39,948 bases of DNA from a virus: UHGV virus genome UHGV-0205111; one strand, written 5' to 3'. The notes beneath the pieces are model-generated. The model saw only the letters and a program-made list of their open reading frames with translations. It was not told the origin of the DNA and did not search any database. Positions 20,859 to 39,948 of the stretch are shown here, in pieces. Position numbers and translations under genes: made by a program. Positions within the stretch are counted from its first letter, which is position 1; every line of letters starts with the position of its first letter.

Positions 20859-20871
20859 AGGAGGTGAGCAT

Positions 20872-21474
20872 ATGACAGACACGGATGTATGCAACATGGC
20901 ACTATCCTATATTGGGAAAGGTGTTATTTCAAATATGGAAGAAGAACAGGAAAATGCTAGGGCATGTAAGTTGTATTACGAAACGACAAGAAGACAAATT
21001 TTGCGGGAATGTATTTGGGGCTTTGCCCATCGTATAGAACGATTGGCCAAAATGGATATAGACATACCCGGCTGGGAATACGTGTATGGTTATCCGGCGG
21101 AATGCCTTAAAATCAATAAGCTGACCGAAGAGGTGCCGGACTATCAAACACGGCAGTACTGGGATATATATAACGTAGGCAGCAGTACGAAAGTAGTAGC
21201 GGCACATTTAGAAAACGCATATATAGATTATACGTGGGACGTAAAAGACCCGAATTTATGGGATGATATTTTTGTACAAGCATTTGCTCATTTGCTGGCG
21301 TCAAGGCTGGCACAGCGGCTTGTAGGGAATCCACAGCTGGTACAACAGGAGTATCAATTTTACCAAGCAACGATTATGACAGCCAAGACACAAGACGCAC
21401 GGGAGGAAGAACCACGTGTTGACTTTAGAAGCAGTTATATTGAAGCCAGGAAAGGAGGTTTTATAAATGGCTAA
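20872..21474 (+). CDS. Tail tubular protein A / adaptor (gp11-like)
   Basis: TDVCNMALSYIG...WGFA...W.YVYGYPAECL; RBS AGGAGG at ATG 20872. Confidence 0.8.
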   Translation: MTDTDVCNMALSYIGKGVISNMEEEQENARACKLYYETTRRQILRECIWGFAHRIERLAKMDIDIPGWEYVYGYPAECLKINKLTEEVPDYQTRQYWDIYNVGSSTKVVAAHLENAYIDYTWDVKDPNLWDDIFVQAFAHLLASRLAQRLVGNPQLVQQEYQFYQATIMTAKTQDAREEEPRVDFRSSYIEARKGGFING

Positions 21475-23755
21475 TATCTACATGCTGCAGGCAGCGTTTA
21501 CGACGGGCGAAATATCACCGGCCGTCGGAAACCGCGTTGATTTAGACAAATACAAGTCGGCCCTGCTAAATGCGGAAAACACAGTTATTCGACCGTATGG
21601 CGGCTGTTATAGACGGCAGGGGAGCAAGTATATAGGCGAATTGAAATACAGCGATAAAGACGCCGTATTGGTGAATTTCTATGATACAGAAAATTCAGCG
21701 TATTTATTGGAAGTAGGCGTGCAGTATATACGAATATGGAAAGATGGCGTATATACAGGTACTGAACTGGCAACGCCGTACCAGTATCCTAAACAATTGC
21801 AGTTTACCCAATCGGCGGATGTGATGTTTATATGCTCCGGTATTTATCCTGTAAAACAGTTGCGGCACTTGCAAAACGGGTGGGATGTTATTGACTTTGC
21901 AATTGATGACCAGTACTATGACTTGCTATTGGAAAAAAACTCGTCAGAAAATAAAATCAGAACATCCGGCACCAGTGGGAATATTACTATCACGTCCAAT
22001 CAAGCTATTTTTCAATCCGGGATGGAAGGCGGCTATTTAAAAATATCGCATGATATGCCGTCACAAACGGAAAGCTGGGAATGCAAAGGCGATACGAACG
22101 GCTCAACGACCAGCGCAAGCATTTTTGTTGGTGAAAAGTGGAAATTTGTTACACATGGAACCCATCATTACAAAGTAGTTATACAGAAATCAAAAGACAA
22201 TGTGACGTGGCACGACTTCCGGACATATACATCAAACGACGATACCAATTACACGGAATCAGGAGCAGAAACGGAACCATGCTATATGCGATTTGTGGCA
22301 CAGGCGTGGAATGATGATGAAGCAAGTAAGAGTCACGTAACCGTTGATCTAACACGATTATCTTATGTACATACAGGGTGTGTAAAAATAACCGGCATTA
22401 CATCGGCGACAGTAGCAAGCGGAACCGTGGTAGCCGGGGCGACAATCGGAAAACACGGTATTGGAAGCACAGAAAGTACGGCAGATTATGCGTTTTCCAG
22501 TTGGTCAAACTATTTCGGCTACCCGACACAATCATGCTTTTTTCAAGACAGATTATGCTTTGCGGCAACAGCTAGACAGCCGTACTCTATCTGGATGAGC
22601 CGTACGGGAGATTACGGTAATTTCAGCGTGGAAAAAGTAGATGGTACATTAACGGATGACAGCGCCGTCAAGTTAGATTTAATCGTCCGCAATGCATATC
22701 AGATACGGCATATGATACCGTCTAATGATTTAGTGATTCTCACAAGCGGCAATGAATGGGTAATCAGCGGCGATAGTGCCATTACACCAAGTAAAGTTTT
22801 CCCGAAAGCACAGACCATGCGCGGCTCGTCAACGTGCCTGCCGCAGCATATCGGCAACCGTATCATTCACGTGCAGCGGTCTGGATCGACGGTGCGTGAT
22901 TTGGGATACCAGTACGAATCAGACAACTACAACGGCGATGAATTAGACATATTAGCAACACATCTAGTAAAAGATCATCGGCTCATATCATCGGCATATT
23001 GCCAAGAACCGGATTCGACGCTATTTTTTGTGCGAGATGACGGCGTGCTGCTGGCATTCACGATTATTCGCGAACAGCAGGTATTCGCTTGGTCCCGTTT
23101 TATAACCGATGGGAAATATAAGTGGATATGCACGATACCGGCAGATGAAAACGACGAACTGTACGCTATTGTAGAACGTACAATAAACGGTACGCAAAAA
23201 CGCTACATTGAACGGTTTAAAGCCATGCATGACGATACAGACGAATATGTAGACAGCTACGCAACGGGAAGCGGTAATAGCATTTCGCTGCCGCACCTAG
23301 CGGGAAAAACAATAGCAGTTGTTGGCGATGGCATACAGCAGCGTAACGAAATAGTGCCGGGAAACGGCGTTGTACAACTGCAGGAAACATATAAGAAAAT
23401 TATAGCCGGATTGCCGTATATGACCAAAATAGAACAGCCGGGCGCAGAAATCAGTTTGCAGGAAGGAACGCTGCAGGCGCGAGTAAATAAAATCAATGCC
23501 GTAACGTTACGCGTAGAAAATACGTACGGTGGCCGTATTGGGTTGAACTTTAAAAGGATGGATGAATTGAAATATGACGATGAATATAAACTATTTACCG
23601 GGGATATTGTGCAAAGTGTGCCGCTGTATGACGTCGGCGCAAATACACGCAATCATTTATGTATTATGAGTGATGAACCATATCCTTTTCAATTAAACGC
23701 AATTATCAAGGAGGTATCTGTAGATGGCGGTATGGTCAAGAGCTATACGGGTTAA
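21467..23755 (+). CDS. Tail tubular protein B / nozzle (gp12-like)
   Basis: AFTTGEISP, GGCYRRQG, YPTQSCFFQDRLCFA, WMSRTGDYGNF. Confidence 0.88.
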   Translation: MANIYMLQAAFTTGEISPAVGNRVDLDKYKSALLNAENTVIRPYGGCYRRQGSKYIGELKYSDKDAVLVNFYDTENSAYLLEVGVQYIRIWKDGVYTGTELATPYQYPKQLQFTQSADVMFICSGIYPVKQLRHLQNGWDVIDFAIDDQYYDLLLEKNSSENKIRTSGTSGNITITSNQAIFQSGMEGGYLKISHDMPSQTESWECKGDTNGSTTSASIFVGEKWKFVTHGTHHYKVVIQKSKDNVTWHDFRTYTSNDDTNYTESGAETEPCYMRFVAQAWNDDEASKSHVTVDLTRLSYVHTGCVKITGITSATVASGTVVAGATIGKHGIGSTESTADYAFSSWSNYFGYPTQSCFFQDRLCFAATARQPYSIWMSRTGDYGNFSVEKVDGTLTDDSAVKLDLIVRNAYQIRHMIPSNDLVILTSGNEWVISGDSAITPSKVFPKAQTMRGSSTCLPQHIGNRIIHVQRSGSTVRDLGYQYESDNYNGDELDILATHLVKDHRLISSAYCQEPDSTLFFVRDDGVLLAFTIIREQQVFAWSRFITDGKYKWICTIPADENDELYAIVERTINGTQKRYIERFKAMHDDTDEYVDSYATGSGNSISLPHLAGKTIAVVGDGIQQRNEIVPGNGVVQLQETYKKIIAGLPYMTKIEQPGAEISLQEGTLQARVNKINAVTLRVENTYGGRIGLNFKRMDELKYDDEYKLFTGDIVQSVPLYDVGANTRNHLCIMSDEPYPFQLNAIIKEVSVDGGMVKSYTG

Positions 23756-24188
23756 ACAAATCACAAAAAATGAATGGCAGGATGTGCGATGGCTGCTAAA
23801 CCATTTACGGCAAACAGATAACATGGAGCTGTCACTCACAGAAACCGACGTAGAAAAAGATTTATTCAACGATGAGTTTTGCAATTACATAGCCTACTTG
23901 GGAGATAGACCGCTTTTTATCGGCGGCATATCGAGAAAAACATATACCGGCTATGGGCACATGATATGGGCCGTATGCCGGTACGATACGTATGATAAAT
24001 ACAAACGGGAATGGGTGCGCGTCAGTAATGCACTGATGGCAAACTGGAAACATCAGTACGGCCAGCTATGGAACATGATATTAGAACGCAACGATGTGTC
24101 CAAACGCTGGTTGAAACGAATGGGTGCGACATTTTCTGATCCATTTATATACAACGGCGCAAACTGGCAGTTATTTAGAATTGGTTAA
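23724..24188 (+). CDS. GNAT-like / T7 gp13-like protein
   Basis: LRQTDNMEL...N.VSKRWLKRMGATF; position after the nozzle. Confidence 0.7.
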   Translation: MAVWSRAIRVKQITKNEWQDVRWLLNHLRQTDNMELSLTETDVEKDLFNDEFCNYIAYLGDRPLFIGGISRKTYTGYGHMIWAVCRYDTYDKYKREWVRVSNALMANWKHQYGQLWNMILERNDVSKRWLKRMGATFSDPFIYNGANWQLFRIG

Positions 24189-24198
24189 AATTATTTAA

Positions 24199-24228
24199 GT
24201 CGCATCGTGTGGGTGCGAGGATTGAAAT
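24199..24228 (+). CRISPR. Solitary type I-C CRISPR-like repeat (no array, no cas genes)
   Basis: GTCGCATCGTGTGGGTGCGAGGATTGAAAT has the I-C 5' GTCGC, TCGCA/TGCGA stem and 3' GGATTGAAAT; single copy in a 59-bp intergenic gap. Confidence 0.65.
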
Positions 24229-24247
24229 AGAATTGAGGTGAATCATA

Positions 24248-25045
24248 ATGTGCAGTCCGGCATGGATGATAGGATTACAAGCAGTACAAGGGTTAAACCA
24301 ATACAATCAAACCAAACAGCAGTATAACGCAAACATTGCCATGGCGAATCAGCAGGCACAAACAGCAGAGCAAAATGCAAAAATACAAGAAAAGAAAGAA
24401 GAACAAACGGCGGAACAATACGCCAGTAAACAAGCACAGCTCAATGCGCGCATGAAACTAGCGGCAGGGCAAGCAACGGCACAGGCAGGAGCCAATGGTG
24501 TAATGCTGTCCGGCTCACCGCTAGATTCATTATCATCAAGCTATCAGGCGTGGAATGATGACAGCGCAACACTGCTGCAGAATCAACGGAATGATATATG
24601 GGGCCAAGAAATAAACAGGAAAAACTATATCAATCAAGCGAACGCATACAGAGCTAGTGCGGCAAATTTAAATGCACAAAAACAAGATGCATTGTGGGGT
24701 ACGCTGCTTACAACAGCGGCCGGCATATACGGTATCAAAAGAGCCTATGGCAGTGCGTCTAAAGCAACGGCAGGAGATAATACGATGAAGCTGGGACCAC
24801 AAGCGACTATTACAAGCCCGGCAGCATATCAGGCGTATACATTTGGCAGCAGTTCAAATGGTATCAAAACCACTTTAAACAGTGGGCTGTTTGGTAGTAA
24901 AGCAGGGAAAAACTATACTCTTAAATACCCGTGGAGCAGGAAATTCAGGTGGCAGTCTACGGCAATACGGCCGGTTAACTTGGATGCGGCAAGCTTAAAA
25001 TATGATGGGCCAATTCGCCCGGTTAATTTAGACAAATGGATGTAA
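24248..25045 (+). CDS. Internal virion (ejection) protein, gp14-like
   Basis: MC N-terminus, Ala/Gln-rich, GANGVMLSGSPLD motif. Confidence 0.75.
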   Translation: MCSPAWMIGLQAVQGLNQYNQTKQQYNANIAMANQQAQTAEQNAKIQEKKEEQTAEQYASKQAQLNARMKLAAGQATAQAGANGVMLSGSPLDSLSSSYQAWNDDSATLLQNQRNDIWGQEINRKNYINQANAYRASAANLNAQKQDALWGTLLTTAAGIYGIKRAYGSASKATAGDNTMKLGPQATITSPAAYQAYTFGSSSNGIKTTLNSGLFGSKAGKNYTLKYPWSRKFRWQSTAIRPVNLDAASLKYDGPIRPVNLDKWM

Positions 25046-25057
25046 GGAGAGAAACCC

Positions 25058-27877
25058 ATGGCGATTACGATAAAAGCATATAACAGAGCCGTAGAGCCGA
25101 ACACCATACAAGGACAGGTGCAAACATCGAGCAATCCGACAGCATACGGCGAAAACACAAACGGCAGTCAAGCTATTATAGCAGGACTGGGAGAAGCACA
25201 GAAACAGCTGCAGGGCTATGTAGATGATCAGATTAATTTAAGTGTCATTGATGCAAAAAATCAGTATGAAGCCGGGATGAATGATTTATTGAATAATCCC
25301 AAAACAGGATTGCTCAATCAGCAAGATATGAATGCGTTGGATGTCGTACAGAAATATCAAGAGGGAGAGTCAAAACTGCGCAATGAAGTATTGGCAGGAC
25401 TGCCGAATTATAAAAAAGCGCAGGATACGTTTTTAAACATGGCCAACGAAGTTAACAACCGAAATACGGGGCAGATGATGAAATATCAGTATGCCAAAGA
25501 CATGGAACACCGGGAATTGACATGGAATACATTTGTAGATAACGAAACGGATAATTTAGTCCAAACAAATAATGCGGAAGGGTTATTTACTGGTTTTAAC
25601 AGAATAACGGCAACGGCATATGCACTGTACGGCAATATATATGGTAAAGATAAAATAGATGTCATGATAAAAGAACGTAATACAGAAATGGCTAACAATG
25701 TATTGAATAATCTTGTAGCCAGCAGTAATGCAAGCGACTATGATAAAGCACTCAATATATTAGAAAAAATATCGCCGTTTATTAATGATGCCAAATTAAC
25801 GACTATGCGTAGCATGCTGCAGAAACGGAAGCATGATAATTATTTACTGCAAATCGCGAAAACCGCAAGGATAAACCACCCGAATGACCCTAAAGCACAG
25901 GAAAAAGAAATTAGGGAAAAAGCACAAAAAACGATTATGGTAGGCGGTAGTAATTCCGGAAACAGCACTGTAGATCAATTTATCGATGCGGCACACGAAT
26001 TTGGCGTGGATCCGCGAAAGCTTTTATCTGTCGGCATGCGAGAAACGGGTGGCGACACTATAGACGGTATGAACATGGCAGCAGGTGGCGGTTTTGGACA
26101 AATCACGGACGAAACCGCCCAGGCATACGGGTTGGATGAAAAATTCCCGAATTGGCAAACAGATAGCCGGCAAAACATTCGCGCAGCAGCATTTATTTTA
26201 AAGAAAAAAACAGAAGAACATGGCGGCGATGAATGGGCAGGCGTGCGAGCATATAACGGAGATGGCCCCATGGCAGACGAATATTTATCGCAAGTGCAGA
26301 CCAATTATGCGGGCTTGGAAAATATGGACTTTTCCGGCGGCAATGGTGCTGCCAGCTTTGAAAACAATCTTATACAAGGATTTCAGAACGCGGCAGATAT
26401 TCCGCAAAATGGTCCTAATGGATGCGCAGAAGAAGCCCTATCATCACTTTCATGGGCAAATCCATGGGCAGCCAATGCGTATCAAAAGGGACTGTTTAAT
26501 GTAGAAGCAATGGCAAATGATGCCAAAGCAAACGGCATAAAAGAAATAGAGTACGACCCCAATCAATTAGCAATAGGCGACTTAGTCATCTATACAACAA
26601 AAGAGGGCGAGTACGGACATACCGTAGTCTATGATGGGCACGGAGGATTTTATGGGAATTCCAGTTCGGCAAATGGTGGTGCAGGCGGCAAAGTACATGG
26701 TACAGATATTAATATTCCCGGTATGACGCCAGCTAAAATATTAAAAACAGGTGCAAGTGATACAGGTGGTGCGATGCGAGAGGAAACGATTCAAGTATAT
26801 GATGAGTCAGAAATACAGAAAGCCCTGTCATTGGCGGCACAATTCGATGCGCAAGAAGCCAGAGCTACAAAAATGGCAAATGATTCACTAGTGCGGCAAG
26901 GATTGCTAGAAATGCAGCAGTTACATGACAGCGGCAACTTAGACATAACAAGTTACCAAGCAATAGCTGATAAGTACGGCGCGAATAACCCGGATGTATA
27001 CAGCACGCTGAAAAGCAGCATTAGTACGTACGTATCTGTTAGAGCGTCGGGCGGCATATACGGCGGAGGAAGCGGAAGAGGCGGCAGAAGTGGCGGCGGA
27101 TATGCTGGTGCAGGCAAAGCCGATATGCTGGTTCTTAAATCGTTATTTGGACAAAACGGTATAGAAACATTGTCTGATATACAGAATTATTGCGCGAATA
27201 AGGGGATTGTTCTTACACCGTCCCAAGTTAATACATTAGCTAAAGCAGCAGAGCAGTATCAAACGGGAACCGGCGAATATAAACCTATGTATGAAGTTAC
27301 GGCGGAGCAAATACAAAATGCCAGTGGAATTAGTGCCGGGGAATTTAAGGGAAATATGGCAGTTATTCAACAACTAATTAGAACGGCAGCGGTTCAGTAC
27401 AGGACACAGCATAATGGGGAAGAACCGTCACTCAATCAATTGATACAATTTGGTGTAAATGCAGTAACGAAAGATGCGGCAGGATATTCGCAGGCACAAA
27501 TGCGCGCAGCAGGTATTTTGAGCGTTACGCCTTTGAATGATGGGTACAATATCGTGAAAGACTGGAACCATAATACATACTATATCTATACCGACCATTT
27601 GCAAGATATATTAACGGGACAGACTACATTGGCTGATGTAGTAGAACAAGCGGAAGAAGCCCAAGCAAATGGTACTGAAAATGATACAGATAAAGATACT
27701 GCTAATACATCAGATACAGGAGCGTATCGCGCTGTCTATGATACAAGTTCAGATACAATTAATAATTATCAATCGAGTGAAGAAGAAAACAAAGAAATAG
27801 CAGAATCTGATACGATTGGAGAAGTTATTGAAAACAGACTTGAGGATTTAAAAGAGACAATAACATCATGGTGGTAA
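25058..27877 (+). CDS. Internal virion protein with lytic transglycosylase (SLT) and NlpC/P60-like peptidase domains
   Basis: AAHEFGVDP..LLSVGMRETGG...GFGQI...NIRAAAFILK...AYNG; NGCAE...GDLVIY...GHTVVYDG. Confidence 0.8.
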   Translation: MAITIKAYNRAVEPNTIQGQVQTSSNPTAYGENTNGSQAIIAGLGEAQKQLQGYVDDQINLSVIDAKNQYEAGMNDLLNNPKTGLLNQQDMNALDVVQKYQEGESKLRNEVLAGLPNYKKAQDTFLNMANEVNNRNTGQMMKYQYAKDMEHRELTWNTFVDNETDNLVQTNNAEGLFTGFNRITATAYALYGNIYGKDKIDVMIKERNTEMANNVLNNLVASSNASDYDKALNILEKISPFINDAKLTTMRSMLQKRKHDNYLLQIAKTARINHPNDPKAQEKEIREKAQKTIMVGGSNSGNSTVDQFIDAAHEFGVDPRKLLSVGMRETGGDTIDGMNMAAGGGFGQITDETAQAYGLDEKFPNWQTDSRQNIRAAAFILKKKTEEHGGDEWAGVRAYNGDGPMADEYLSQVQTNYAGLENMDFSGGNGAASFENNLIQGFQNAADIPQNGPNGCAEEALSSLSWANPWAANAYQKGLFNVEAMANDAKANGIKEIEYDPNQLAIGDLVIYTTKEGEYGHTVVYDGHGGFYGNSSSANGGAGGKVHGTDINIPGMTPAKILKTGASDTGGAMREETIQVYDESEIQKALSLAAQFDAQEARATKMANDSLVRQGLLEMQQLHDSGNLDITSYQAIADKYGANNPDVYSTLKSSISTYVSVRASGGIYGGGSGRGGRSGGGYAGAGKADMLVLKSLFGQNGIETLSDIQNYCANKGIVLTPSQVNTLAKAAEQYQTGTGEYKPMYEVTAEQIQNASGISAGEFKGNMAVIQQLIRTAAVQYRTQHNGEEPSLNQLIQFGVNAVTKDAAGYSQAQMRAAGILSVTPLNDGYNIVKDWNHNTYYIYTDHLQDILTGQTTLADVVEQAEEAQANGTENDTDKDTANTSDTGAYRAVYDTSSDTINNYQSSEEENKEIAESDTIGEVIENRLEDLKETITSWW

Positions 27878-27889
27878 GGAGATAAAGAC

Positions 27890-30800
27890 ATGGCAGAATA
27901 TGAATTTAAACCAGGTAATATTGAAGATGCTATTAATAAAAACGGAGAAACATTTTCGAATCCCATTAATATATTACCGACAGAAGAAGAAAAAGAGCAA
28001 ATAGCAGCAGACGTACAGCAGGAACAAGAAGAAAACTATGCTAAGCTGGATGCTATTATGGCTTCCGGCCAGCCGGTCCGGCGTAAAATGCCAGATTTAG
28101 TAACGATACCGAAAATATACGGAAAATCACTGAGCATGCCGGAAGCAACACGGGGCTGGGATGATTTAGGTATAGGTGAGAAACTGCTTTACGGTACGCA
28201 AGAAAAACTATGGGATGTGTACCGAAATGTAACAAATGACCAAGCACATATATTAAGTGATGCAAGACGATATGCACCGTCTATTGGCGTAACGCCGCAG
28301 TATTTAGTAGATAATCCGGATGAAATGGAACGGGCACGACTGGAATATGATAGAAAACAAAAATTAGGCTTTATGCCGGTCGATGAAAACTATTCATCTG
28401 GTATGCTGGATGCAAATTACCCGGAACTCAAAGATATACGGCTGTCAGACCCCGTGGGAGCCGCACAAGCATTGCAAAACTATCAAGACGTACACGGCAT
28501 GCGGAATATTTTTGACAGTATTCACGACACTATTTTTGGTGTGAAAGAATTGCTTTTGGATGCCTATAACAGCGGCTCGGATATGGTAAAACTGTACGAT
28601 GCACAAATGAAAGCTGTTAAAACTGGCGACGTAGAAGCGGCACGCCCGGAAGTAGACGAAATTACACAGCGGCTCAAAGAATATCACGAACAAGATGAGC
28701 CGACTACACCGCTGGGCAAAGTAGTGTATGATACGATTCAGCAGCTAACGATTTACGGTACGCAGGGATTGAGAGCCTTACAGTATGTGCCAAAAGGTAT
28801 GGCTATGGCGATGGCAGCAGCAGCCCCTGCCGCTGCGGCAGCAGGGCCGGAAACATTAGGGGCAGGAACAGCGGCGATATTGACAGGCGCGGGCATAACC
28901 GGTGCGGCTTGGGGATTCCGCACGGGCATGTTTAAAGAAATACAAAATCAATCCATGGCAGAACGGTACTGGCAGATGGCAAACGCTAAAGACAAAAACG
29001 GCAAACCTATGTACAGCCGAAACAACATGCTACTGGATTCGATAGGAACGGGAACCATCAATGGGGCTATAGAACTGGGGTTGCTGGAACTGGGATATAA
29101 ACCGATAAAAGCCGCCTGGGGAAAAGATGCAGCCAAAGCGATATTGACAAACGGTGCAGCACAACGGGACATCGCCGAAGCCGGAAAAGGGGCGATTGCT
29201 CGTATTGCCTTGACACAGGGAGCTTTGCAGTATGCCCGCGGTGTAGCGTCTGAACTGGCAGAAGAAGGCGCGCAGTCTGTCGTAGGCAGCATGGCAGAAA
29301 ATATTGAATACGGTATCCATGGGCAAGGGAAATGGAACACCGTAGGCGATGTACTAAACGATGCAATAGATTCTATGGTGCAAGCTGTACCGGCAGCTCT
29401 CGGTATGGGCGGCATGGGTGCTGCAGTGCATACAGCTGGAAACTATAAAGCTATGAATAACATAGCTAGTATCAAACTGAATGAATGGAAAGAAGAATAT
29501 AAACGCAACGTGGAGAAACAGACTATTGATCAGCTGATAGCGCAGAAAAAAGAAAATAACTTGGCAAAAGAAGCACCGGACGTATACCAAAAAGTCGTCG
29601 ATGCGCAAGCAAAACAAGTCGGTATGGATACGATGTATGTAGACGCACAAGAGCTGGCACGGACAGAAGCAGGCGTAAACGTGTTAAATGACATGGTCAA
29701 TAAAGGCATAGTAAGCGGCGAACAAGTAGATAATGCCGTATCAAACGGCACAGACTTGGAAATCAAAACCGGCGTATTTGCACAGCTGGCAGACGAAACG
29801 ACAGATACTCAAACGCTGATGGATGCTACAACCATGAATAAAGGCGGCGTTCATATGGCAGCATTGCGCGAACGGGCAAAACGCATTGAAGCGATGCGGC
29901 AGGAATTGTCACAACTGGCTAACGATAAATCGGATAAGCTGGCAGAAGAAATCGTGCAGGAACATTTTAAAGATGCAGACGAACCGATGCAGGAAGCGGC
30001 GCGCGATGTCGTATATAGAAATCCGTATGATATAGAAAAAAGCTATAAAGATGCGGTCAAAGAAGCACGAAACGAATATGAAAACGCTGTAAATTATACA
30101 TATTACAGCACGTATAAACCGCAAGGCGTATCGATTGTTACAGCAGATGCAAACGGATACAACAACACCCAGACAGGCCGCGGCTATCGCATGAGCGAAA
30201 ATGAACCATGGTACAGCGATATGTATAAAGAATATGGCGGCAAAGCGACGAAAGAGCAACTGCTGGATGTAGCGTATAAAAATGAACGCAAAGAAATTGC
30301 CGCGTCGTCTCCGGAACTGTTGCAGGAATGGGAAAACAACGTGGCAGAAAAGAAAGCACGATATGAAACACTAAAAGGGATGGAAGAAAAATTTTCGGCT
30401 CTAGCTAAAAGCGACTATGCCCTTAGAAACACATTTACAAAAGACGGCGCAAGCGTGTATACGCAGGCATTGCACACTCTATCTAATGCCAGTGAACAAG
30501 CAAGCCAAGCAGCAAAAGAAAACGCATTTATCTATGCCCGCATGGCCGAACGCTGGACTAATATCATGAACGAATACGGCGATACAGCGTATACACCGAA
30601 AAAATTTATGGAACAGCATCCGATTGTGGCAGGCAATAAAAAAGCCGGCACCTATGGCCAGCCAATTACAAATATGGATATTCAACTAGATAAGCCTGCT
30701 CCGGTAATTACTATCAAAGAAAAATATGCGGGGATGGATTGGAAGGACTTACGAAAACAACTGCCTGGAACCGTAGAAAACGATATTGTTTCCAAGATAA

Positions 30801-33800
30801 ATGAAAAAGGGGAATATATCCCGTATGTTAATGAAGCGACGAAAAATAAAGTTATTGTCACGAAAAAAGGTTCTTTGAGCCATTTTAAATCAGATAAGAC
30901 AAGTAGCCCGGACTCGACAAAAAAACGACAGAACACGTTGCATTATGAAATGATAGAAGCTGTTCCGGAAATCATTAAGAGAGGAATATGGATTGAAGAC
31001 CATATAGATCGACATCAAAAAGCCATATACGTTTCACGGATTATTGCGCCGGTACAAATTGGCGCACATATATATGCTGTTAAATTAACCGTAAAAAAAG
31101 ACGAAAATAAATATTTATTAGAAAGCGGAGAATACACACACTTTAGAGCATATGATATAGAAACAGAAGAAGAACCCAAAAGTGGCAGTACCTCTACCAA
31201 CTCCGACGCAAGGCCTGATCATCAGCAGCCAATACCACTTTTGAGTTCTTCTAATTTAAGTATACGTGAGCTGCTAAAGAATGTCAATGATGGACTAAAA
31301 CACGGTCCTTATGTTAATAATGACGGCACCCCAAACTATGGCATTTATTTCGGGGACAATGAAACAGGCGGGGTAATGTATATTACGCCGAAAGATACCA
31401 CATACGAGCAGCGCGCATGGCACGGATCACCACATGATTTTAATAAATTTGATTTGGGATATATTGGAACGGGAGAAGGTTTTAATAATCATGGGTATGG
31501 ATTGTATTTTAGTAAATCGAAAAAGATAGCACAAGAATATAAAAAGAGACTGGGAAAAAATATTGGGAAATTATATGAGGCAGAAATACCAGACGAAAAG
31601 GACATGCTAAATGAAGATGTGCTATATAAACGTTTACCACAAAGCATAAAAAACGGCATAAAAAAAGTATACCAAGAACTGGATGCCACACAGAAAAATA
31701 TTTTCACATCCCAAATTATAGAAGAAGACAGACCAACAGCAGAAGAAAATAAAATCCTTAGTCAGTTAAAAGAAATCCAAAAAGTAAGAGAAAATTTAGA
31801 AATGCTGTCAAAGGGAGAACCAATTAAAGGGCTGCGTAAGGCGAGAATAAAAAAAGAATTACTAAAAGCAAATTTTAAAGAAGAACAAATAGAACAATTA
31901 TTTAATGATTTTGGGTATGCTGAACAAATAAAAGGATCCTATTTAAATGAAAACGCACAGCTGGAAAGCAAGTTAAGAAAAAAGCAGCAGCTAATAGAAA
32001 ATAGAATACAAATACATAACAATGAATTAAAAAACAATCTATTCGACTATTTAGAGAAGACTGCAAGCGGCTATGCTTCTGGACGCGGTATTTATCATGC
32101 ATTATCAGAGGCACTCGATGGAGATGCAAGAAAAGCAAGTGCGTTATTAAATAAAAATGGGATAAAAGGAATAATTTATGATGGACGAGGAGAGGGACGT
32201 TGCTATGTTGTCTTTGATGATAAAGCGATTTCTATCATTGATAAGCACAACCAAGATGGGGCAATATACGAGCAGCGTGCATGGCATGGCAGCCCGTATA
32301 ATTTTGACACATTTGATTTAGGTGCGATGGGCAAGGGGGAAGGACATCAGGCCCATGGCTGGGGACTGTATTTTGCTAAAGATCGAAACGTATCAGAAGC
32401 CTATAAAAAAGTTTTGGGAGATAAAAACACCTCGATAGAAGTAAACCAGACTATATATCGGCTTAATGAAGATGGCGATTGGGCAGTGCCATGGGGAAAC
32501 GTAATCAAATACGGCAGTGCCATGGGGTACGTATTGGATTCAATGCACGAAAAGGGAAGCAGAGAAAAAGCGATTGCTGATTTAAAAGACGCATTGAAAA
32601 GAAATAGAATCAGAGGAGTTTATGCAGATGAGGCTAGAAAAGCAATTGGAATTTTAAAAGAGGGAAATATAAAACTGAATAAAACCGACCGGCTGTATGA
32701 AGTAGAAATTCCTGAAAACGATGTGCTGCTTGATGAACAAAAAACAATAGGGGAACAACCGCAAAAAGTACAAGATGCGATTATGGATATGTTGTTTGGC
32801 AGGAATGTCAACGCAGCATTGCGGGAAGCAGAGAAAAAAGGCGGCGTAGAGGGAAAATTTGCAGTGGAAAAAGCACTGCGGTATATCAGTGAAGACGAAG
32901 ATGAATTGAAAGCTCGCGGCATTTCTGAGGAAGAAGTGGAACATGCGTATAACAAAGCATTAGAATACGTCGATGAAGAGTTACTCTTGAAAGCACAGGA
33001 AGAAAAGTTAAGCTATGAAGACCCCGAAAAGCCGCATTTGGAAGAAGGACATAAGGACAAATATAAAGTAAAAGAATTAACTGGTGAAGAATTTTATAAT
33101 GAGTTAGCAATGTCTACGCCAGGATATGATGAAGCGGCGTCAAAATTGTTAAATGAATACGGTATTAAAGGCATAACGTATGAAGGAGAAAGAGATGGCC
33201 GCTGTTATGTCGTTTTTGATGACCAAGCGATTTCTATTATAGACAAGTATAATCAGCAGCTAAACGGCGTCAAAGCGGCCTATAATGCTAATACCGGGGC
33301 GATCCATCTATTTGATGCGGCCGACCAGTCCTCATTTATCCATGAGGCTGGGCATATGTGGCTGTCTGAAATGAAAAACATGGCCATGCAGGAAGGTGCA
33401 CCGGAACAATTAATCAAGGACTTGGATGTTTTGACTGCATGGGGTACATACAGCCCGGAAAAAATGAACGACTATGCCGGTACAAATCGTGAAAAAGAAT
33501 TTGCGGAATACGCTAAAGCCATAGAAGATGCCCGCAAAAGCGGCGATGCCATTGCAATTAAAGCAGCAGAAGAACGCTGGATGCAGGAACGATTCGCAAG
33601 AGCCTTTGAAAGGTATATAGCAGACGGCAAAGCACCGGTACGGGAATTGCAAGGGCCGTTCCGGAAATTTAAGAAATGGCTGATTGGTATCTATCAAGAC
33701 CTTAAAAACTTGGGAAAAGAACCGCCGGAAGACGTAAAACGCGTTATGGACAGAATGCTTGCAACGGATGAAGAAATAGAAACATGGGCAAAGCTGCGGG

Positions 33801-36800
33801 AAATAAACGCATGGGACAGAAAAGGATTTAGCGGCGATTTATCCGGCAGTGAAGGGAACATGATAAAGAAATGGGCCGAAAAAATCAGAGAAACAGCCAA
33901 AGAAAAGCTGATGCAGAAATATATGGAAGACATCAAAAAACAAGATGAAGCGGATCGACAGCGCGGACTGGAAGAAGAAAAAATAGCGTATCAAAAACAG
34001 CTGTGCGAAGAAAACGAACTCTATAAATATGAAAACCTGTATAATACCATGCCGGAAGCCAGAGCAGGTATTTTGGCAAAATTGAATATTGCGGATGAAA
34101 AAGAATTTAGAAAAGCCATGCAAGAAGCGGGCGGCACATTGGAAGAACGTACCCATGAATATATGAAAGCCAAACAAGAAGAATATGATGCGCTGATGTA
34201 TTCGCCGGAACAAATCAGAACGATGGCCGATGAGCAGCTGGCGTCTACCAATGGCCAAATAGCACTCAATGAATTAGAAGCCCATGCGATGCGGCGAAAA
34301 CTAAACAGCTATATTGCTGAATGCGTAAAAGCTATGCGAGAAGTAGGAAATGTATCCGGCACGGATGCGGAAGTAGCCGCACAACTGCGTAACATATTGC
34401 ATGTGGAAGATATAGCGGATAAAGAAAAAGCCGCTAAAGGGGCCATGAAAGACAGTATACTGGCCAAAAGTAAAGAAATAGCAGACCTCAAAAAACGGCT
34501 GGCAGAAACAAAAGAAAAAGGAAAAGAAACAAAAGAACAAAATGAACGGACGATTGCCCAATTAAAAGCCGGGCTGAATGAAGTCATTAAAGGATTAAAC
34601 GATGCACGCGACATGGGCAGAAGTAACTATCAATCGGTATTGCGACTGACACGGGAAGAAATGAATGATATGACCGTCGGTGATGCGACGACGTGGAGGC
34701 ATTATGAAATTAAAGCAAAATCAGCAAGCCGCCGGGCTGATGTACAGATGTCGGCAGGCAACTTTACAGAAGCTATCATAGAAAAAAACAACGCACAAAA
34801 ATTTTACTGTATGTCGCGCGTAGCTAAAGAAAATGAAGACTTCTTAAGAAAAGCCCTTGGCCATGATTACGAAGACGCTGCTACTGGAGAAGAACGGACA
34901 GGGATTGCTGGTATTATTAATCGTATCAAGAGACAAAAGAACCCTGTACGGATGGGACCAAACGAACGCTATTTTATTGAACACTTGGCGTATATCTTGG
35001 GACTTGATAATCGGGACGGCCGTATGCCACTTGATGATAAAGGCAACCCCATCGGCATAAATTGGGAATACTTGTATCGCGACTTATCACCAGATAACGC
35101 AACAGAACAGAAATCAAAATTAAATCCGGATGATTTAATTGCACCTTGGGTACGAGCCATGGTAGAGCGCAAAGACCGGATAGAAGATTATCAGAAAAAC
35201 ATCGCTATGGCACAAATGAAAGATATTTACCAAGCTATACAGGCAATTTACCGCGTAGGGAAACGGGACTATGAAGCAACAACACTAATGAATGACGGTA
35301 AAACAGTAAGTATCATCGATGCCGTAACCGAAATGCTGGCAGAACGCGATTATTCTGTAGATACAATAGAGCAAAAACTGTGGAGTGCAGAGCAGGAAGA
35401 AAATGACAAAACAGCTACGGGACGCTTAAAAGATACATTAAGCGATGCGTTGCTGTCGTTAACAAAGCCGGAAATCGTGCTAAACGACATGGGTAAATCT
35501 TTTATCAAATATATCTACAAACCAATAGATACAGCGTCACGAAATGAAATGAGTATGCTGCAGCAAGCTTATAAAGAATTCGGCGAAATTTATAATATGT
35601 ATAGCAAAACAGAATGGCGGCATATCCGGCAGGATAAGTTATACAACCTCGGAAGAATCAGCAATTACACTAAGGAACAAGTAATGACTATTGCTTTGAA
35701 CTGGGGAAATAAAGAAGGACGGCAGCGTATTTTAGACAATCTCAACGAAGGCATACAGCATGAGCATGAAAAATACACGCAGACAGATGTAGAAAATTTA
35801 TTTGCGAAAGTATTTACAGAAAAGGACTTGGACTTTTTAGAATCCGTGTGGAAACAAATAGACCAGTACTGGCCGGAACGAAATAAAGTACAAGAACGAC
35901 TGTACGGCGTAGGTCTTGGCAGAGTGCAAGCAACACCGTATACAATCAATGGTAGAAAAGTAAGCGGTGGATATTATCCAATCGTCTACGATCCGAAAAT
36001 CTCTACAAGAACAACGGATATGGAATTAGATGATATAGTTAAATCTCAATTATCGGGTAACGCGGCAATGTCCATTGGCATGGGAAGCACTAAAAAACGA
36101 GTAAAAGTAGTAAAAGGGCAAGTGGTAATGAAAAGCTTAAATATATGGCCGCAAGCAGTCAATGAAGCAATACACCATATTTGTATGCGTGAGGCCGTCA
36201 CAGACGTATACAAATTGCTAAATAGAAAAGAAATGGAAGCGGTCATAGTGCAGGACTACGGCATAGAAACGTATCAAATGCTGAAACAATGGGCGCGGGA
36301 CTGCTGGAAAACAGATATAGCCAAAACAGATAAAATATCTAGAATGTTGGAAACGCTTAGAAGAAATACCTCATATAGCGTCATGGCATATCGTGCAAGT
36401 ACAGCCATTTTGAATGTGTTAAATATATTCCCTATGATGCGTGAAATCGGATTTGCAAATACATGGATGGCATTAAAAGACGTCTATATTACAGGAAACT
36501 ATAAAAAGAACCGACAATTTGTCATGGAACACTCGCCGTTTATGGCAGAACGAATCAATACATTGGATAAGGATTTCCGGCAACACATGACCTTTGATGT
36601 TGATAAAAACGCAAGTATCATAAGTGTGAAGTCAAACGGAGTGGGAAACAAGGTACAATATATAGGGGGCATAAAAGATGGCATAAACCGGTTTGCGTAC
36701 CTTGCAATAGCCGAAACAGACTTAATGCTGTCTATGCCGCTTTGGAAATGGCAATACGAAGAATCGTTGCGGCGACAGATTGAAGAAGGAAAAACGGACG

Positions 36801-37531
36801 AACTGGTGATGCGTGACCGAGCAACCTTTGAAGCAGATAGGGCCGTACGAAATGTATTAGGGTCCGGCATGACAAAAGACCAAGCGCAAGTACAGCGAAC
36901 CCAAGGATTAGTATCTCAAATCATCCCATTTTATTCATACTGCAGCACGGTAATGAACGCGCTCATCCAAGAAGGGTACAACATTAGCGCAGGAAAAAGC
37001 AAAGTAGGCATGTGGAATGCCATGTTGTACTGGATTGTGCTTCCTACAATTTTTGAGCAGCTATTCCGATCGGCAGTAGCCGGTGACGATTGGGAAACCT
37101 TAATGAAAAAGATGGGCGTTAAAATGATTACCAATACAACGCAAGGTGTACCAGTAGTACGGGATGCGGTTGAATTTGCGGCCAATGCAGCGTTTGATTT
37201 ACCAAACTACGATAGCGGCAATGTACTGGCGATTTCCATCTTTGACGAACTGCAAAAAAGCATACAGTCGGCTGGCTCAAAAAATCAAGATGCAACCGAC
37301 GTGGCAAGACATCTGACCAGAGCTTTGAACAGATACACAGGCTTTTCTGATACCCTCACAGATGGATTCTGGTCACTGATGCGGTTTAGCTTAGTCGATA
37401 CAGATAGAAGCGTCATTGACTTGGCAAACAGCGCCATTTTTGATAGACGCTATAAAACAGCAAAAGAGAGAGAAAAAGCAGAAAAACAAAAAGAAAAGAA
37501 AAATACAAAACAGAAGGACGATAAAAAATGA
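27890..37531 (+). CDS. Giant (3213 aa) polyvalent internal virion protein with LPD-like domain, two ART-PolyVal-like domains and a zincin HExxH motif
   Basis: Two AWHGSP..F..FD...G.GEG....G.GLYF units, SFIHEAGH, and ERFARAFERY..G.AP typical of large polyvalent/ejection proteins; position before the tail fibre. Confidence 0.8.
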   Translation: MAEYEFKPGNIEDAINKNGETFSNPINILPTEEEKEQIAADVQQEQEENYAKLDAIMASGQPVRRKMPDLVTIPKIYGKSLSMPEATRGWDDLGIGEKLLYGTQEKLWDVYRNVTNDQAHILSDARRYAPSIGVTPQYLVDNPDEMERARLEYDRKQKLGFMPVDENYSSGMLDANYPELKDIRLSDPVGAAQALQNYQDVHGMRNIFDSIHDTIFGVKELLLDAYNSGSDMVKLYDAQMKAVKTGDVEAARPEVDEITQRLKEYHEQDEPTTPLGKVVYDTIQQLTIYGTQGLRALQYVPKGMAMAMAAAAPAAAAAGPETLGAGTAAILTGAGITGAAWGFRTGMFKEIQNQSMAERYWQMANAKDKNGKPMYSRNNMLLDSIGTGTINGAIELGLLELGYKPIKAAWGKDAAKAILTNGAAQRDIAEAGKGAIARIALTQGALQYARGVASELAEEGAQSVVGSMAENIEYGIHGQGKWNTVGDVLNDAIDSMVQAVPAALGMGGMGAAVHTAGNYKAMNNIASIKLNEWKEEYKRNVEKQTIDQLIAQKKENNLAKEAPDVYQKVVDAQAKQVGMDTMYVDAQELARTEAGVNVLNDMVNKGIVSGEQVDNAVSNGTDLEIKTGVFAQLADETTDTQTLMDATTMNKGGVHMAALRERAKRIEAMRQELSQLANDKSDKLAEEIVQEHFKDADEPMQEAARDVVYRNPYDIEKSYKDAVKEARNEYENAVNYTYYSTYKPQGVSIVTADANGYNNTQTGRGYRMSENEPWYSDMYKEYGGKATKEQLLDVAYKNERKEIAASSPELLQEWENNVAEKKARYETLKGMEEKFSALAKSDYALRNTFTKDGASVYTQALHTLSNASEQASQAAKENAFIYARMAERWTNIMNEYGDTAYTPKKFMEQHPIVAGNKKAGTYGQPITNMDIQLDKPAPVITIKEKYAGMDWKDLRKQLPGTVENDIVSKINEKGEYIPYVNEATKNKVIVTKKGSLSHFKSDKTSSPDSTKKRQNTLHYEMIEAVPEIIKRGIWIEDHIDRHQKAIYVSRIIAPVQIGAHIYAVKLTVKKDENKYLLESGEYTHFRAYDIETEEEPKSGSTSTNSDARPDHQQPIPLLSSSNLSIRELLKNVNDGLKHGPYVNNDGTPNYGIYFGDNETGGVMYITPKDTTYEQRAWHGSPHDFNKFDLGYIGTGEGFNNHGYGLYFSKSKKIAQEYKKRLGKNIGKLYEAEIPDEKDMLNEDVLYKRLPQSIKNGIKKVYQELDATQKNIFTSQIIEEDRPTAEENKILSQLKEIQKVRENLEMLSKGEPIKGLRKARIKKELLKANFKEEQIEQLFNDFGYAEQIKGSYLNENAQLESKLRKKQQLIENRIQIHNNELKNNLFDYLEKTASGYASGRGIYHALSEALDGDARKASALLNKNGIKGIIYDGRGEGRCYVVFDDKAISIIDKHNQDGAIYEQRAWHGSPYNFDTFDLGAMGKGEGHQAHGWGLYFAKDRNVSEAYKKVLGDKNTSIEVNQTIYRLNEDGDWAVPWGNVIKYGSAMGYVLDSMHEKGSREKAIADLKDALKRNRIRGVYADEARKAIGILKEGNIKLNKTDRLYEVEIPENDVLLDEQKTIGEQPQKVQDAIMDMLFGRNVNAALREAEKKGGVEGKFAVEKALRYISEDEDELKARGISEEEVEHAYNKALEYVDEELLLKAQEEKLSYEDPEKPHLEEGHKDKYKVKELTGEEFYNELAMSTPGYDEAASKLLNEYGIKGITYEGERDGRCYVVFDDQAISIIDKYNQQLNGVKAAYNANTGAIHLFDAADQSSFIHEAGHMWLSEMKNMAMQEGAPEQLIKDLDVLTAWGTYSPEKMNDYAGTNREKEFAEYAKAIEDARKSGDAIAIKAAEERWMQERFARAFERYIADGKAPVRELQGPFRKFKKWLIGIYQDLKNLGKEPPEDVKRVMDRMLATDEEIETWAKLREINAWDRKGFSGDLSGSEGNMIKKWAEKIRETAKEKLMQKYMEDIKKQDEADRQRGLEEEKIAYQKQLCEENELYKYENLYNTMPEARAGILAKLNIADEKEFRKAMQEAGGTLEERTHEYMKAKQEEYDALMYSPEQIRTMADEQLASTNGQIALNELEAHAMRRKLNSYIAECVKAMREVGNVSGTDAEVAAQLRNILHVEDIADKEKAAKGAMKDSILAKSKEIADLKKRLAETKEKGKETKEQNERTIAQLKAGLNEVIKGLNDARDMGRSNYQSVLRLTREEMNDMTVGDATTWRHYEIKAKSASRRADVQMSAGNFTEAIIEKNNAQKFYCMSRVAKENEDFLRKALGHDYEDAATGEERTGIAGIINRIKRQKNPVRMGPNERYFIEHLAYILGLDNRDGRMPLDDKGNPIGINWEYLYRDLSPDNATEQKSKLNPDDLIAPWVRAMVERKDRIEDYQKNIAMAQMKDIYQAIQAIYRVGKRDYEATTLMNDGKTVSIIDAVTEMLAERDYSVDTIEQKLWSAEQEENDKTATGRLKDTLSDALLSLTKPEIVLNDMGKSFIKYIYKPIDTASRNEMSMLQQAYKEFGEIYNMYSKTEWRHIRQDKLYNLGRISNYTKEQVMTIALNWGNKEGRQRILDNLNEGIQHEHEKYTQTDVENLFAKVFTEKDLDFLESVWKQIDQYWPERNKVQERLYGVGLGRVQATPYTINGRKVSGGYYPIVYDPKISTRTTDMELDDIVKSQLSGNAAMSIGMGSTKKRVKVVKGQVVMKSLNIWPQAVNEAIHHICMREAVTDVYKLLNRKEMEAVIVQDYGIETYQMLKQWARDCWKTDIAKTDKISRMLETLRRNTSYSVMAYRASTAILNVLNIFPMMREIGFANTWMALKDVYITGNYKKNRQFVMEHSPFMAERINTLDKDFRQHMTFDVDKNASIISVKSNGVGNKVQYIGGIKDGINRFAYLAIAETDLMLSMPLWKWQYEESLRRQIEEGKTDELVMRDRATFEADRAVRNVLGSGMTKDQAQVQRTQGLVSQIIPFYSYCSTVMNALIQEGYNISAGKSKVGMWNAMLYWIVLPTIFEQLFRSAVAGDDWETLMKKMGVKMITNTTQGVPVVRDAVEFAANAAFDLPNYDSGNVLAISIFDELQKSIQSAGSKNQDATDVARHLTRALNRYTGFSDTLTDGFWSLMRFSLVDTDRSVIDLANSAIFDRRYKTAKEREKAEKQKEKKNTKQKDDKK
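31165..31252 (-). ncRNA. Putative antisense small RNA inside the giant gene
   Basis: 18-bp terminal stem (31168-31185 / 31235-31252, one G-U on the minus strand) beginning at the predicted TSS of the promoter at 31259-31287. Confidence 0.5.
31259..31287 (-). promoter_or_regulatory. Near-consensus sigma-70/sigma-A promoter, antisense within the CDS
   Basis: Minus-strand TTGACA-17 nt-TATACT. Confidence 0.65.
31403..33256 (+). repeat. Tandem domain duplication (two ART-like units)
   Basis: Units ~31403-32254 and ~32267-33256 both start YEQRAWHGSP and end RCYVVFDD.AISIIDK.NQ, with divergent middles. Confidence 0.85.
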
Positions 37532-39252
37532 TTCAAACTGCCGAAGTAAGTATTACATACAAAGGAGACGGCGTGCAAACGTCGTTTCCGTACCCGTACC
37601 CGTATCGTAATAGTGCTGATATAATTGGCTATATTATTAATGATATAGGCTATGAAACACGTATTACGACGAATTTTAAATATGACGAGGTAAGCAATAC
37701 CTATCAATATCCATTGAGCGGAGAACCGCTTTCGTCATCATACTCTATTAAACTTATTCGAGAAACACCGCAACAACAAAACGCTGCTCTGCCCAGTAAA
37801 CTGCCGTTTTCACTCATTGAAAAAAGCCTGGACTGGATTATCATGATTCTACAAGAAATCGGAAGCCGCAGTAATAACTTGTGGAATACCAGAAACGATT
37901 GCAAACTAAGTGAAACCAATGCTAGAAATAGTGCCAGTGCTGCAGCTAATAGTGAAGACAAAGCGAGACTCAGTGAAAATAATGCTAAAAGCAGCGCTAA
38001 TGCTGCAGCTAATAGTGAAAACATGGCGAAAAAATGGGCGATTGATACGACAAGCCCCGATGGAGCTACAGATAATGACAGTTATACAGGTAAAACACAA
38101 AGCAGTCGCATATGGGCTTTGTATAGTAAAGAACAGGCGCAAGCTGCTAAAGTATCAGAAACTAATTCTAAGCTTTCAGAAACCAATGCAAAATCTTCAG
38201 AAACAAAAGCAGCTGTGTCGGCAACCAATGCGAAAACATCAGAAACTAATGCTAAAACATCAGAAAGAACTGCTAGTGACAGTGCTTCTGCTAGTGCGTC
38301 TAGTGCAAGTGCGTCGACTATGAGTGCCACTAATGCTAAGACTTCCGAAACAAAAGCACTTGCATCTGAAAACAATGCAAAGACTTCTGAAACAAAAGCC
38401 CTTGCATCTGAGCAGAATGCTAAAGATTCAGAAACTAATGCTAGTGCATCAGCTGAAGCTGCTTCTTCGTCTGAAACAAATGCTTTGGCATCTGAAGTCC
38501 ATGCAAGAACTTATGCAACAAATGCGGCTAACAGTGCAAAACAAGCGGCAGAATCAGCAGGTGTCTTTCAGGATTTTACAGGGGCTACAGCTACTACTGA
38601 TGGTACGGGTGGTAAAGTTCCTAAACCATTAGCAGGTCAACAGAATAAAGTATTAAAAGCGGATGGCACATGGGGTGATGGTGTAACGCCTAAGACACTT
38701 TGGGATGGTATGCACTCTTATCCAGTAAACTATGTGCCTGCTGATTTGTCTAATGTTGGGTGGAATCAGTTAGGTTTTTGTTCTATTTATTACACTCAGA
38801 ATAAAATTAATAATCAGCCTACACAATATGGACAGCTTATTAATATTCCTGCTGATGCAAATAATGAAAGTACACAACTATGGATAGAACAGAATGGTGG
38901 TACTATTTTTTCTCGTGGTGGTAATGGTAACATCAGAGTAAATGATACCTCATTTAAAAGATTTGCTACACTAGATGATGTTAATTCCGCCGAAAAAGTG
39001 GATAGTCAAGGGAATAACTGGATTCGCTATAAAAGTGGATTACAAATGTGTTGGAATAATAAACTTAAAGCTACGATAACGTGGACATTCCCTGTTCCTT
39101 TTTCTTCATCACCTGCTGCTGTATCGACAAGTCACCCTGATTCTGAATATGGTATTAGCGGTTTTTCTCAACTTAGTAACACATCTTGTAAGGTAGTTGA
39201 GGAAGGAGATGGTGTCTATGTATGTGCTATAGTAATAGGAAGGTGGAAATAA
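37528..39252 (+). CDS. Tail fibre protein
   Basis: T7 gp17-like N-terminal anchor (YKGDGVQTSFPYPY), Ser/Ala/Thr heptad repeats, C-terminal gp53-like WIRYKSGLQMCW...TFPVPF. Confidence 0.85.
   Translation: MIQTAEVSITYKGDGVQTSFPYPYPYRNSADIIGYIINDIGYETRITTNFKYDEVSNTYQYPLSGEPLSSSYSIKLIRETPQQQNAALPSKLPFSLIEKSLDWIIMILQEIGSRSNNLWNTRNDCKLSETNARNSASAAANSEDKARLSENNAKSSANAAANSENMAKKWAIDTTSPDGATDNDSYTGKTQSSRIWALYSKEQAQAAKVSETNSKLSETNAKSSETKAAVSATNAKTSETNAKTSERTASDSASASASSASASTMSATNAKTSETKALASENNAKTSETKALASEQNAKDSETNASASAEAASSSETNALASEVHARTYATNAANSAKQAAESAGVFQDFTGATATTDGTGGKVPKPLAGQQNKVLKADGTWGDGVTPKTLWDGMHSYPVNYVPADLSNVGWNQLGFCSIYYTQNKINNQPTQYGQLINIPADANNESTQLWIEQNGGTIFSRGGNGNIRVNDTSFKRFATLDDVNSAEKVDSQGNNWIRYKSGLQMCWNNKLKATITWTFPVPFSSSPAAVSTSHPDSEYGISGFSQLSNTSCKVVEEGDGVYVCAIVIGRWK
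37909..38560 (+). repeat. SETNAK / SETKAL heptad repeats in the tail fibre shaft
   Basis: Many imperfect 7-aa repeats (21-nt units such as TCAGAAACTAATGC). Confidence 0.8.
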
Positions 39253-39253
39253 A

Positions 39254-39481
39254 ATGATAGGAACTAAATTATACAAACAAGATTTAAAAATCATTGAATA
39301 TGAAAATATTTCAACATGGTGCAACAAAAATAATGCTATGATAGTTGACAAGGGAGAATATTTTGAAGTAACTCCTTGTCCAGCCTTTACAAAAGAAAAG
39401 ATACCCTCTTTGTCTGAACGCATAGCTGTTCTTGAGGATGCTGTAAACACCTTGATGGAAGGAGAGGTTACAAATGGCTAA
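39254..39481 (+). CDS. Small tail-associated hypothetical protein
   Basis: WCNKNNAMIVDKGEYFEV...SLSERIAVLEDAV; follows the tail fibre. Confidence 0.7.
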   Translation: MIGTKLYKQDLKIIEYENISTWCNKNNAMIVDKGEYFEVTPCPAFTKEKIPSLSERIAVLEDAVNTLMEGEVTNG

Positions 39482-39635
39482 ATATTTGGCGTACCAGATT
39501 ATTTTGCAGAAACTAAAGTACGATACAGTTATCACAAGATTCCCAAAGTACAAAGAAGGTATTGATAGGGTGCTTGATGATATGGGTTGGATGATTGACA
39601 CAGAAGGAAATTGTGTAGGGAAGAAAAAAGGATAG
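39474..39635 (+). CDS. 53-aa XkdX/CD1375-like small protein
   Basis: RBS GGAGAGG; MAKYLAYQIILQKLKYDTVITRFPKYKEGIDRVL; absent from the ORF track. Confidence 0.6.
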   Translation: MAKYLAYQIILQKLKYDTVITRFPKYKEGIDRVLDDMGWMIDTEGNCVGKKKG

Positions 39636-39703
39636 AAGGAAGGAAGATACATGAAGAAAATGTTATATACACTTAGTACATTATGGACACCACTTGAAAA
39701 AAC

Positions 39704-39943
39704 ATGAGCGAACAAGAATATAAAGAAGAAATTGTGCAGCGTCTCGCAGCCATTGAAGCAAGACTGGAATTGATGCAAAAAAACATGGAAGTATTGACGG
39801 AAAAGCTAGATAAAACAAATCAAACGGCAATTATTGCAAGTCAGTCCAGCAAATCAGCACATCACAGGATATCTACGATGTACTGCATAGCAGGAGCGAT
39901 TGGCGCAGTTGTATCTTTTGTAGTTGATTTTTTTAGGAGGTAG
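39704..39943 (+). CDS. XhlA-like holin / hemolysin-family membrane protein
   Basis: Coiled coil, SKSAHHRI motif and C-terminal TM. Confidence 0.7.
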   Translation: MSEQEYKEEIVQRLAAIEARLELMQKNMEVLTEKLDKTNQTAIIASQSSKSAHHRISTMYCIAGAIGAVVSFVVDFFRR

Positions 39944-39948
39944 CAAAA

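Follow-up and report, generated by a model that had tools for sequence, protein, structure and literature searches.

What could a promoter and a hairpin on the opposite strand be doing in the middle of a gene for a giant phage protein? The question is raised by the virus genome UHGV-0205111, whose 39,948 nucleotides were analysed as a whole (the window). A first-pass annotation had proposed that a polyvalent protein gene in this genome also encodes, on its minus strand, a small hairpin RNA that may act as an antitoxin or silencer of the adjacent domain and travel with it as a cassette. The existence of such a dual-coded antisense promoter-hairpin unit is supported by the evidence set out below.

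The gene in question (27890..37531, plus strand) is an ORF for a 3213-aa polyvalent protein, P0001, assigned from its domain matches and gene neighbours. LPD3 (PF18798) is matched at residues 978–1073 with 46.5 and 50.9 bits against a gathering cut-off of 27, and the domain extends over 30677..31168 on the plus strand (Pfam core 30821–31108). An LPD-like domain followed by ART-like repeats had been proposed here; the first part holds, and the ART-PolyVal match is weak and stays under its cut-off (23.6 vs 31.2 bits). Two ART-PolyVal-like repeats, also under the Pfam cut-off, are visible between 31400 and 33260 as a 110-nt direct repeat, 75% identical and 1002 nt apart. Close relatives are often 2540–2580 aa long, which suggests that such modules come and go. 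Those relatives of the region that carry a name are proteins of Megasphaera elsdenii with 52–62% identity. The phage is likely temperate and podovirus-like, since neighbouring genes match the T7 gp14 family, SLT, GP7 capsid and head-tail connector proteins and a resolvase/recombinase gene is found at 5642–7282. The giant protein itself probably resides inside the virion and is ejected from it. The genes on either side of it encode 939 and 574 aa, and neither is a small immunity ORF. Elsewhere in the window, the ORF at 11491–12420 matches REP_ORF2-G2P (PF23343), here in a tailed-phage setting, and a strong intrinsic terminator-like hairpin (20826–20851, plus strand; 11 pairs, T7 tail) is located 3′ of the gene next after the major capsid gene.

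An alpha/beta fold, likely of an RNase-like kind, is predicted for LPD3. In an alignment-based structure model with a mean pLDDT of 87.2, helices are followed by a four-strand meander; H69 is placed in helix 63–70 and T138 in strand 131–148, and the histidine varies in the alignment. A Foldseek search with this model returned no match at E ≤ 0.001, the best row being the CDI toxin-immunity entry 6cp9_A (E 0.061), and LPD3 had neither a PDB sequence match nor a profile match to MuF_C. On the model, it is plausible that LPD3 is a BECR-type RNase; LPD3 is listed separately from the PBECR families in the consulted part of Iyer et al. (PMC5512222). In the accessible text of PMC10910872, the domain called “LPD3” is actually LPD39. 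The peptide behind the domain had been described as a low-complexity linker, which is correct for the residues over the hairpin, where the model confines disorder, and incorrect for the promoter-coded SIRELLKNVN, a predicted helix (block pLDDT 84).

Directly behind LPD3, 3.3 kb into the 9.6-kb ORF, the minus strand reads TTGACA (−35 box, 31287–31282, i.e., 31282..31287, the plus-strand codons of N-V-N), a 17-nt spacer and TATACT (−10 box, 31264–31259, i.e., 31259..31264, the plus-strand codons AGT ATA for S-I), exactly as first annotated. This is the best match and the sole 11/12 match among 46 promoter-like sites in a scan of 20000–39948, where the total number of sites is at chance level (49.1 ± 6.7 expected). 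TTGAC or TTTAC is found at the −35 position in 13/13 aligned LPD3 units. When the codons were replaced by synonymous ones with the peptide of the window kept, the promoter score, which is based on approximate tables, was equalled in 1/200 trials.

Six bases separate TATACT from a stem that begins at 31252, the first base of a predicted 85-nt hairpin RNA (31168..31252, minus strand). The putative +1 is placed at this base because the mapped start of a counterpart in Escherichia coli Sakai, described below, is the 7th base after its −10 box. Folding of the minus strand (31252–31168) gives a 20-bp closing stem with G-U pairs, a 4 × 6 internal loop and an inner helix; the 5′ arm (31233..31252) and 3′ arm (31168..31187) are supported by folding and covariation, and their segments 31252–31235 and 31185–31168 form an 18-nt inverted repeat that is 94% complementary. 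The pairing of the arms is thus as first described; the distance of about 85 nt given for it is the whole span, and the gap between the arms is 49 nt. The folding energy of −39.4 kcal/mol (z −4.98) was reached by 0/200 shuffles, and the plus-strand fold of the same segment is weaker (−27.4 kcal/mol, z −4.51). Synonymous recoding with the same peptide yielded −23.1 ± 3.3 vs −38.9 observed, with 0/200 recoded sequences reaching the observed folding energy. Together with the recoding of the promoter, this supports a constraint by promoter and RNA on the overlapping sequence: codon choice follows the DNA/RNA signal and not the peptide.

In the ensemble fold, the stem seals off both RNA ends, and short loops are all that stays open. 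A candidate recognition element is GAGGUAC (31188..31194, minus strand), which forms the 3′ side of the 4 × 6 internal loop opposite UUGG (31232–31229) and is unpaired in the ensemble. It occurs in 9/9 loci hand-picked for checking, from the clade of the window and some Desulfobacterota, and is missing from other LPD3 units (L100, L101 and L044). Its GAGGU looks like a Shine-Dalgarno sequence. The tail that follows the stem, UCUGUUUC (31160..31167, minus strand), is U-rich as had been noted, to the moderate extent of 6 U per 10 nt (9 per 10 in the tail of the related locus L009), and likely acts as a weak intrinsic terminator, judging from its sequence. When the two strands of the window were scanned from end to end with a promoter-stem-U-tail detector, 14 sites passed, of which the LPD3-linked unit ranks first in promoter score (16.0; next 10.6) and in stem length (22 pairs if one mismatch is tolerated; 15 in the runner-up). 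Two weaker minus-strand candidates, at 27238–27154 inside the SLT protein gene (score 9.6, stem 15) and at 24326–24193 where the gp14-like gene starts (score 7.0, stem 14), may be due to chance, given that 14 sites pass. Rfam contained nothing above threshold, the only hit being to the mir-290 hairpin (21.7 vs 51 bits needed). The longest complement to the RNA elsewhere in the window is a single 12-nt match, to the purine-rich partner of the tail, and the RNA showed no variable, guide-like stretch that has a target there.

Conservation of the stem in homologous domains had been suggested as a check, and the stem is indeed kept through compensatory changes. Across an alignment of eight sequences from the clade of the window, several of them near-identical and representing about five lineages, 97.4% of cells pair, against 36–56% in slid controls; 11/24 pairs are changed on both sides, which 0/500 shuffles reach. 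A second LPD3 subfamily (nine sequences) has a different sequence with a similar stem and loops, and 13/21 of its pairs show two-sided changes. Promoter spacing and the promoter-to-stem offset are conserved among the units.

The same arrangement was sought around LPD3, MuF_C and PBECR1 domains in other proteins. Of 151 domain hits, 91 (the window among them) were left once near-duplicates and hits with less than 260 nt of downstream sequence had been taken out. A loose test was positive for 73/91, and also for 17/91 and 147/558 controls. Under a stricter test, fixed after the output of the loose test had been inspected, an antisense promoter-stem-U-tail unit is found behind 55/91 domains (LPD3 29/46, MuF_C 22/29, PBECR1 4/16), vs 0/91 at the corresponding position of the sense strand; shifted windows gave 17/558 (antisense) and 5/558 (sense). 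The remaining 36/91 domains, 12/16 PBECR1 among them, fail it. One pattern used to fetch MuF_C viral loci covers promoter codons; one LPD3 retrieval pattern touches the terminator side, and the patterns used in two other retrievals lie within the domain core. Upon synonymous recoding of the 55 positives, 51 promoters and 40 folds reached p ≤ 0.05, values that are conditional on their selection. At the protein level, the peptide signature linked to the unit recurs behind every one of the four tandem LPD3 copies of protein P0119 and, by eye, behind examples of PBECR1/2/3 and MuF_C; among the ART (two), SLT, LPD38, LPD23 and PBECR5 (one each) examples inspected in the same way, it was not seen. 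Reverse promoters with stems thus recur in the linkers of other polyvalent proteins as the first-pass annotation had envisaged, and the strict-test counts, the tandem LPD3 copies and the other PBECR-type domains couple the unit to the adjacent domain.

Several individual loci extend this picture. In a Burkholderia phage, a stand-alone LPD3 gene behind a MuF gene has its antisense promoter and hairpin beyond the stop codon (L107:1318-1950). Two tandem antisense promoter-hairpin units, TTGTCA-17-TATAAT and TTGACA-17-TATACT, are found behind one LPD3 domain at L015:1750-1968. In Helicobacter prophages, PBECR2, PBECR3 and LPD3 domains are followed by an antisense extended −10 element and hairpin (approximately L104:7900-8150 and L105:1200-1320, 3336-3530 and 3969-4060); these units have TGnTATAAT or TGnTAGAAT with poor −35 boxes, and were seen by eye, the detector having mostly missed them.

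The predicted RNAs carry motifs that differ between domain families, vary among LPD3 subfamilies and are fixed at silent positions. The MuF_C units share a GGGC-AAUUGNA-GCCC hairpin, with two-sided changes in 3/4 pairs (19 sequences). Where the MuF_C peptide is GLQLP (16/29 domains), its codons are GGG in 16/16 (4.4 expected), CAA in 15/16 (5.0), TTG in 16/16 (2.4) and CCC in 16/16 (4.3), CAA-TTG corresponding to the unpaired loop; the expected counts derive from local codon use, and the observed ones are interdependent, since these domains have a common ancestry. The PBECR1 units have CCT in 9/9 (1.7 expected) and CGT in 9/9 (2.0 expected).

A MuF_C domain also provides a transcription start. 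In ECs1242 of prophage Sp5 of E. coli Sakai, a script placed a TTGCGA-17-TATTTT promoter and hairpin behind MuF_C, this promoter being the third of five minus-strand matches that score at least 8 in the part of the gene examined. Dataset S1 of PMC7547250 lists an antisense start at 1301472 whose enrichment, 24.07, exceeds that of the three further starts given for the gene. The sequence upstream of this position is the predicted promoter; the start coincides with the 7th base past the −10 box, where the stem has its first base; the other antisense start of ECs1242 coincides with none of the five predicted promoters. An Hfq-CRAC peak on the minus strand at 1301433–1301515, EcOnc36, was found in five datasets and is given without a Northern size in supplement 1 of PMC4104026. 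If the assembly versions are the same, as assumed here, EcOnc36 straddles the start and overlaps the predicted MuF_C unit. Its target is given as unknown in the consulted text of a review (PMC7873438). DNA resembling the Sakai region was found in 437/5426 E. coli genomes. The antisense unit is a real and conserved element that is likely transcribed.

Our leading reading, to which we give an even chance, is that the ~85-nt RNA is a type III-like inhibitor that binds its cognate predicted RNase domain, LPD3, in the phage-producing cell. Host RNA polymerase would transcribe it from the sigma-70-type promoter in the lysogen and during induction, the cognate domain would read the family-specific loop as a substrate mimic, and the producer cell would be shielded during synthesis and packaging of the giant protein. 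Once injected, the domain would act in a recipient cell that does not contain the RNA, and the RNA of a lysogen would neutralise a related incoming domain as well. With the RNA gene written into the linker, every domain that is shuffled would bring its own inhibitor along. A protein-binding inhibitor is favoured because the unit tracks the domain, the loops are family-specific at silent sites, the RNA ends are sealed, the unit persists past the stop of a stand-alone LPD3 gene, and the giant gene is not flanked by a small immunity ORF. Among 191 muf toxin genes, 89.4% have such an ORF next downstream (PMC5576092). A precedent is RCd22, which neutralises the prophage protein AbiF through direct RNA-protein contact (10.1101/2025.04.15.648962). 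Counting against the inhibitor are the lack of significant Foldseek, PDB or MuF_C matches for LPD3 and its separate listing from PBECR, the Hfq peak over the Sakai counterpart, which fits base-pairing sRNAs, the 36/91 strict-test failures, the different RNA motifs of LPD3 subfamilies, and the fact that the only start-site evidence comes from MuF_C, not LPD3.

A cis-antisense silencer is a less probable, though serious, alternative: the RNA, or convergent transcription, would pair with or interrupt the late mRNA immediately downstream of the toxic domain, and so damp leaky expression in the lysogen or block superinfecting relatives. By position the RNA is fully complementary to this mRNA, a weak terminator would permit read-through over the coding sequence of the domain, EcOnc36 shows Hfq at the Sakai counterpart, and Salmonella phage BTP1 has an RNA, STnc6030, that is antisense to a DNA-injection gene and excludes superinfecting BTP1 (PMC7067206). 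Yet the ends of the RNA are locked by the 20-bp stem, the site is distant from any start codon, and a single copy per gene would do, whereas the signature recurs after each domain. Loop motifs conserved by family at silent sites would be superfluous for such an RNA, which is complementary to its target automatically. The escape mutants of STnc6030 are single changes, all non-synonymous, in the DNA-injection protein (PMC7067206), a pattern that could fit protein-level recognition instead of antisense pairing.

A rather unlikely alternative to an inhibitor is an RNA that works together with its domain, being bound to it as cofactor, guide or decoy and possibly packaged along with it, or that acts in trans on host targets as an Hfq-type sRNA. 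Any specific RNA-domain partnership would suit the data on coupling and motifs, the five-dataset EcOnc36 peak and the Shine-Dalgarno-like GAGGU fit an sRNA, and the PBECR domain of the Mu MuF protein has been suggested to be inactive and RNA-binding (Iyer et al., PMC5512222). Against this stands the window itself, where no guide-like segment has a target and outside complementarity ends at 12 nt. Hfq, moreover, generally binds terminator U-tails too. Very improbable is a DNA- or mRNA-level element without a functional antisense RNA (a recombination mark for domain shuffling, a sense hairpin or a conserved-peptide by-product): polyvalent proteins are mosaic (PMC5512222), the sense strand folds as well and the promoter-coded peptide is predicted helical, but the G-U pairs speak for the minus strand, the promoter keeps its spacing and offset, the fold weakens upon same-peptide recoding, stem sequences diverge while pairing stays, and the Sakai counterpart has a mapped start.

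Type III toxin-antitoxin systems (ToxIN, CptIN, TenpIN) have an antitoxin that is a tandem repeat array upstream of the toxin and on its strand. The LPD3-linked RNA resembles them in its proposed inhibition of an endoribonuclease; its unit is single, downstream, on the opposite strand and under its own promoter, with no repeat array or Rfam match. In type I systems, an antisense RNA lies over the 5′ or 3′ end of a small toxin gene; this class was rejected, as the target here would be the interior of a 3213-aa ORF. Lambda OOP is a prophage RNA antisense to phage genes, and an own promoter antisense to a phage gene, as in OOP and STnc6030, is present here by sequence and has a mapped start in the MuF_C counterpart. 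STnc6030 is likewise a prophage RNA antisense to a DNA-injection gene and expressed in the lysogen; at 500–786 nt it spans a gene junction (PMC7067206), whereas the LPD3 unit is a closed hairpin of 85 nt that goes with a domain family. The AbiF-RCd22 pair of a Clostridioides difficile prophage combines a protein with an adjacent structured ncRNA bearing family-specific motifs, and its neutralisation by direct binding is the mechanism suggested for LPD3 (10.1101/2025.04.15.648962); P0001 has no Abi_2/AbiD/F Pfam match. In its proposed mode of action, the LPD3 unit would be akin to type III antitoxins or to AbiF-RCd22, yet it fails their defining layout. A further likeness is EcOnc36, a minus-strand RNA signal within a giant gene and over a predicted promoter-hairpin unit, which differs in following MuF_C rather than LPD3, in its loop motif and in being published, in the sources consulted, only as an Hfq peak, with no mention there of a link to the domain.

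The giant protein, with PF18798 above cut-off, belongs to the LPD3/PBECR polyvalent proteins of PMC5512222, the consulted part of which describes no RNA partner or producer self-protection for these domains; the available portion of 10.64898/2026.08.28.747851 does not mention antisense RNAs or RNA antitoxins. Searches of the openly accessible literature found no description of a domain-linked antisense RNA class, and the class of domain-linked antisense promoter-hairpin units is apparently undescribed. We tentatively propose, at somewhat less than even confidence, that LPD3, MuF_C and PBECR domains each carry an antisense RNA immunity gene in the next linker codons. This would be a widespread, undescribed type of toxin-antitoxin system in which virion-delivered nucleases are checked by domain-specific structured RNAs, nuclease and inhibitor being shuffled as one in-frame cassette. 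Up to 26% of polyvalent proteins contain PBECR domains (PMC5512222). If the proposal is true, an RNA partner for each domain would explain how the producer escapes the predicted RNases that its multidomain protein contains, EcOnc36 and other orphan prophage RNAs would gain a likely function, and the recurring peptide motif would be the spelling of a promoter, not a matter of protein function.
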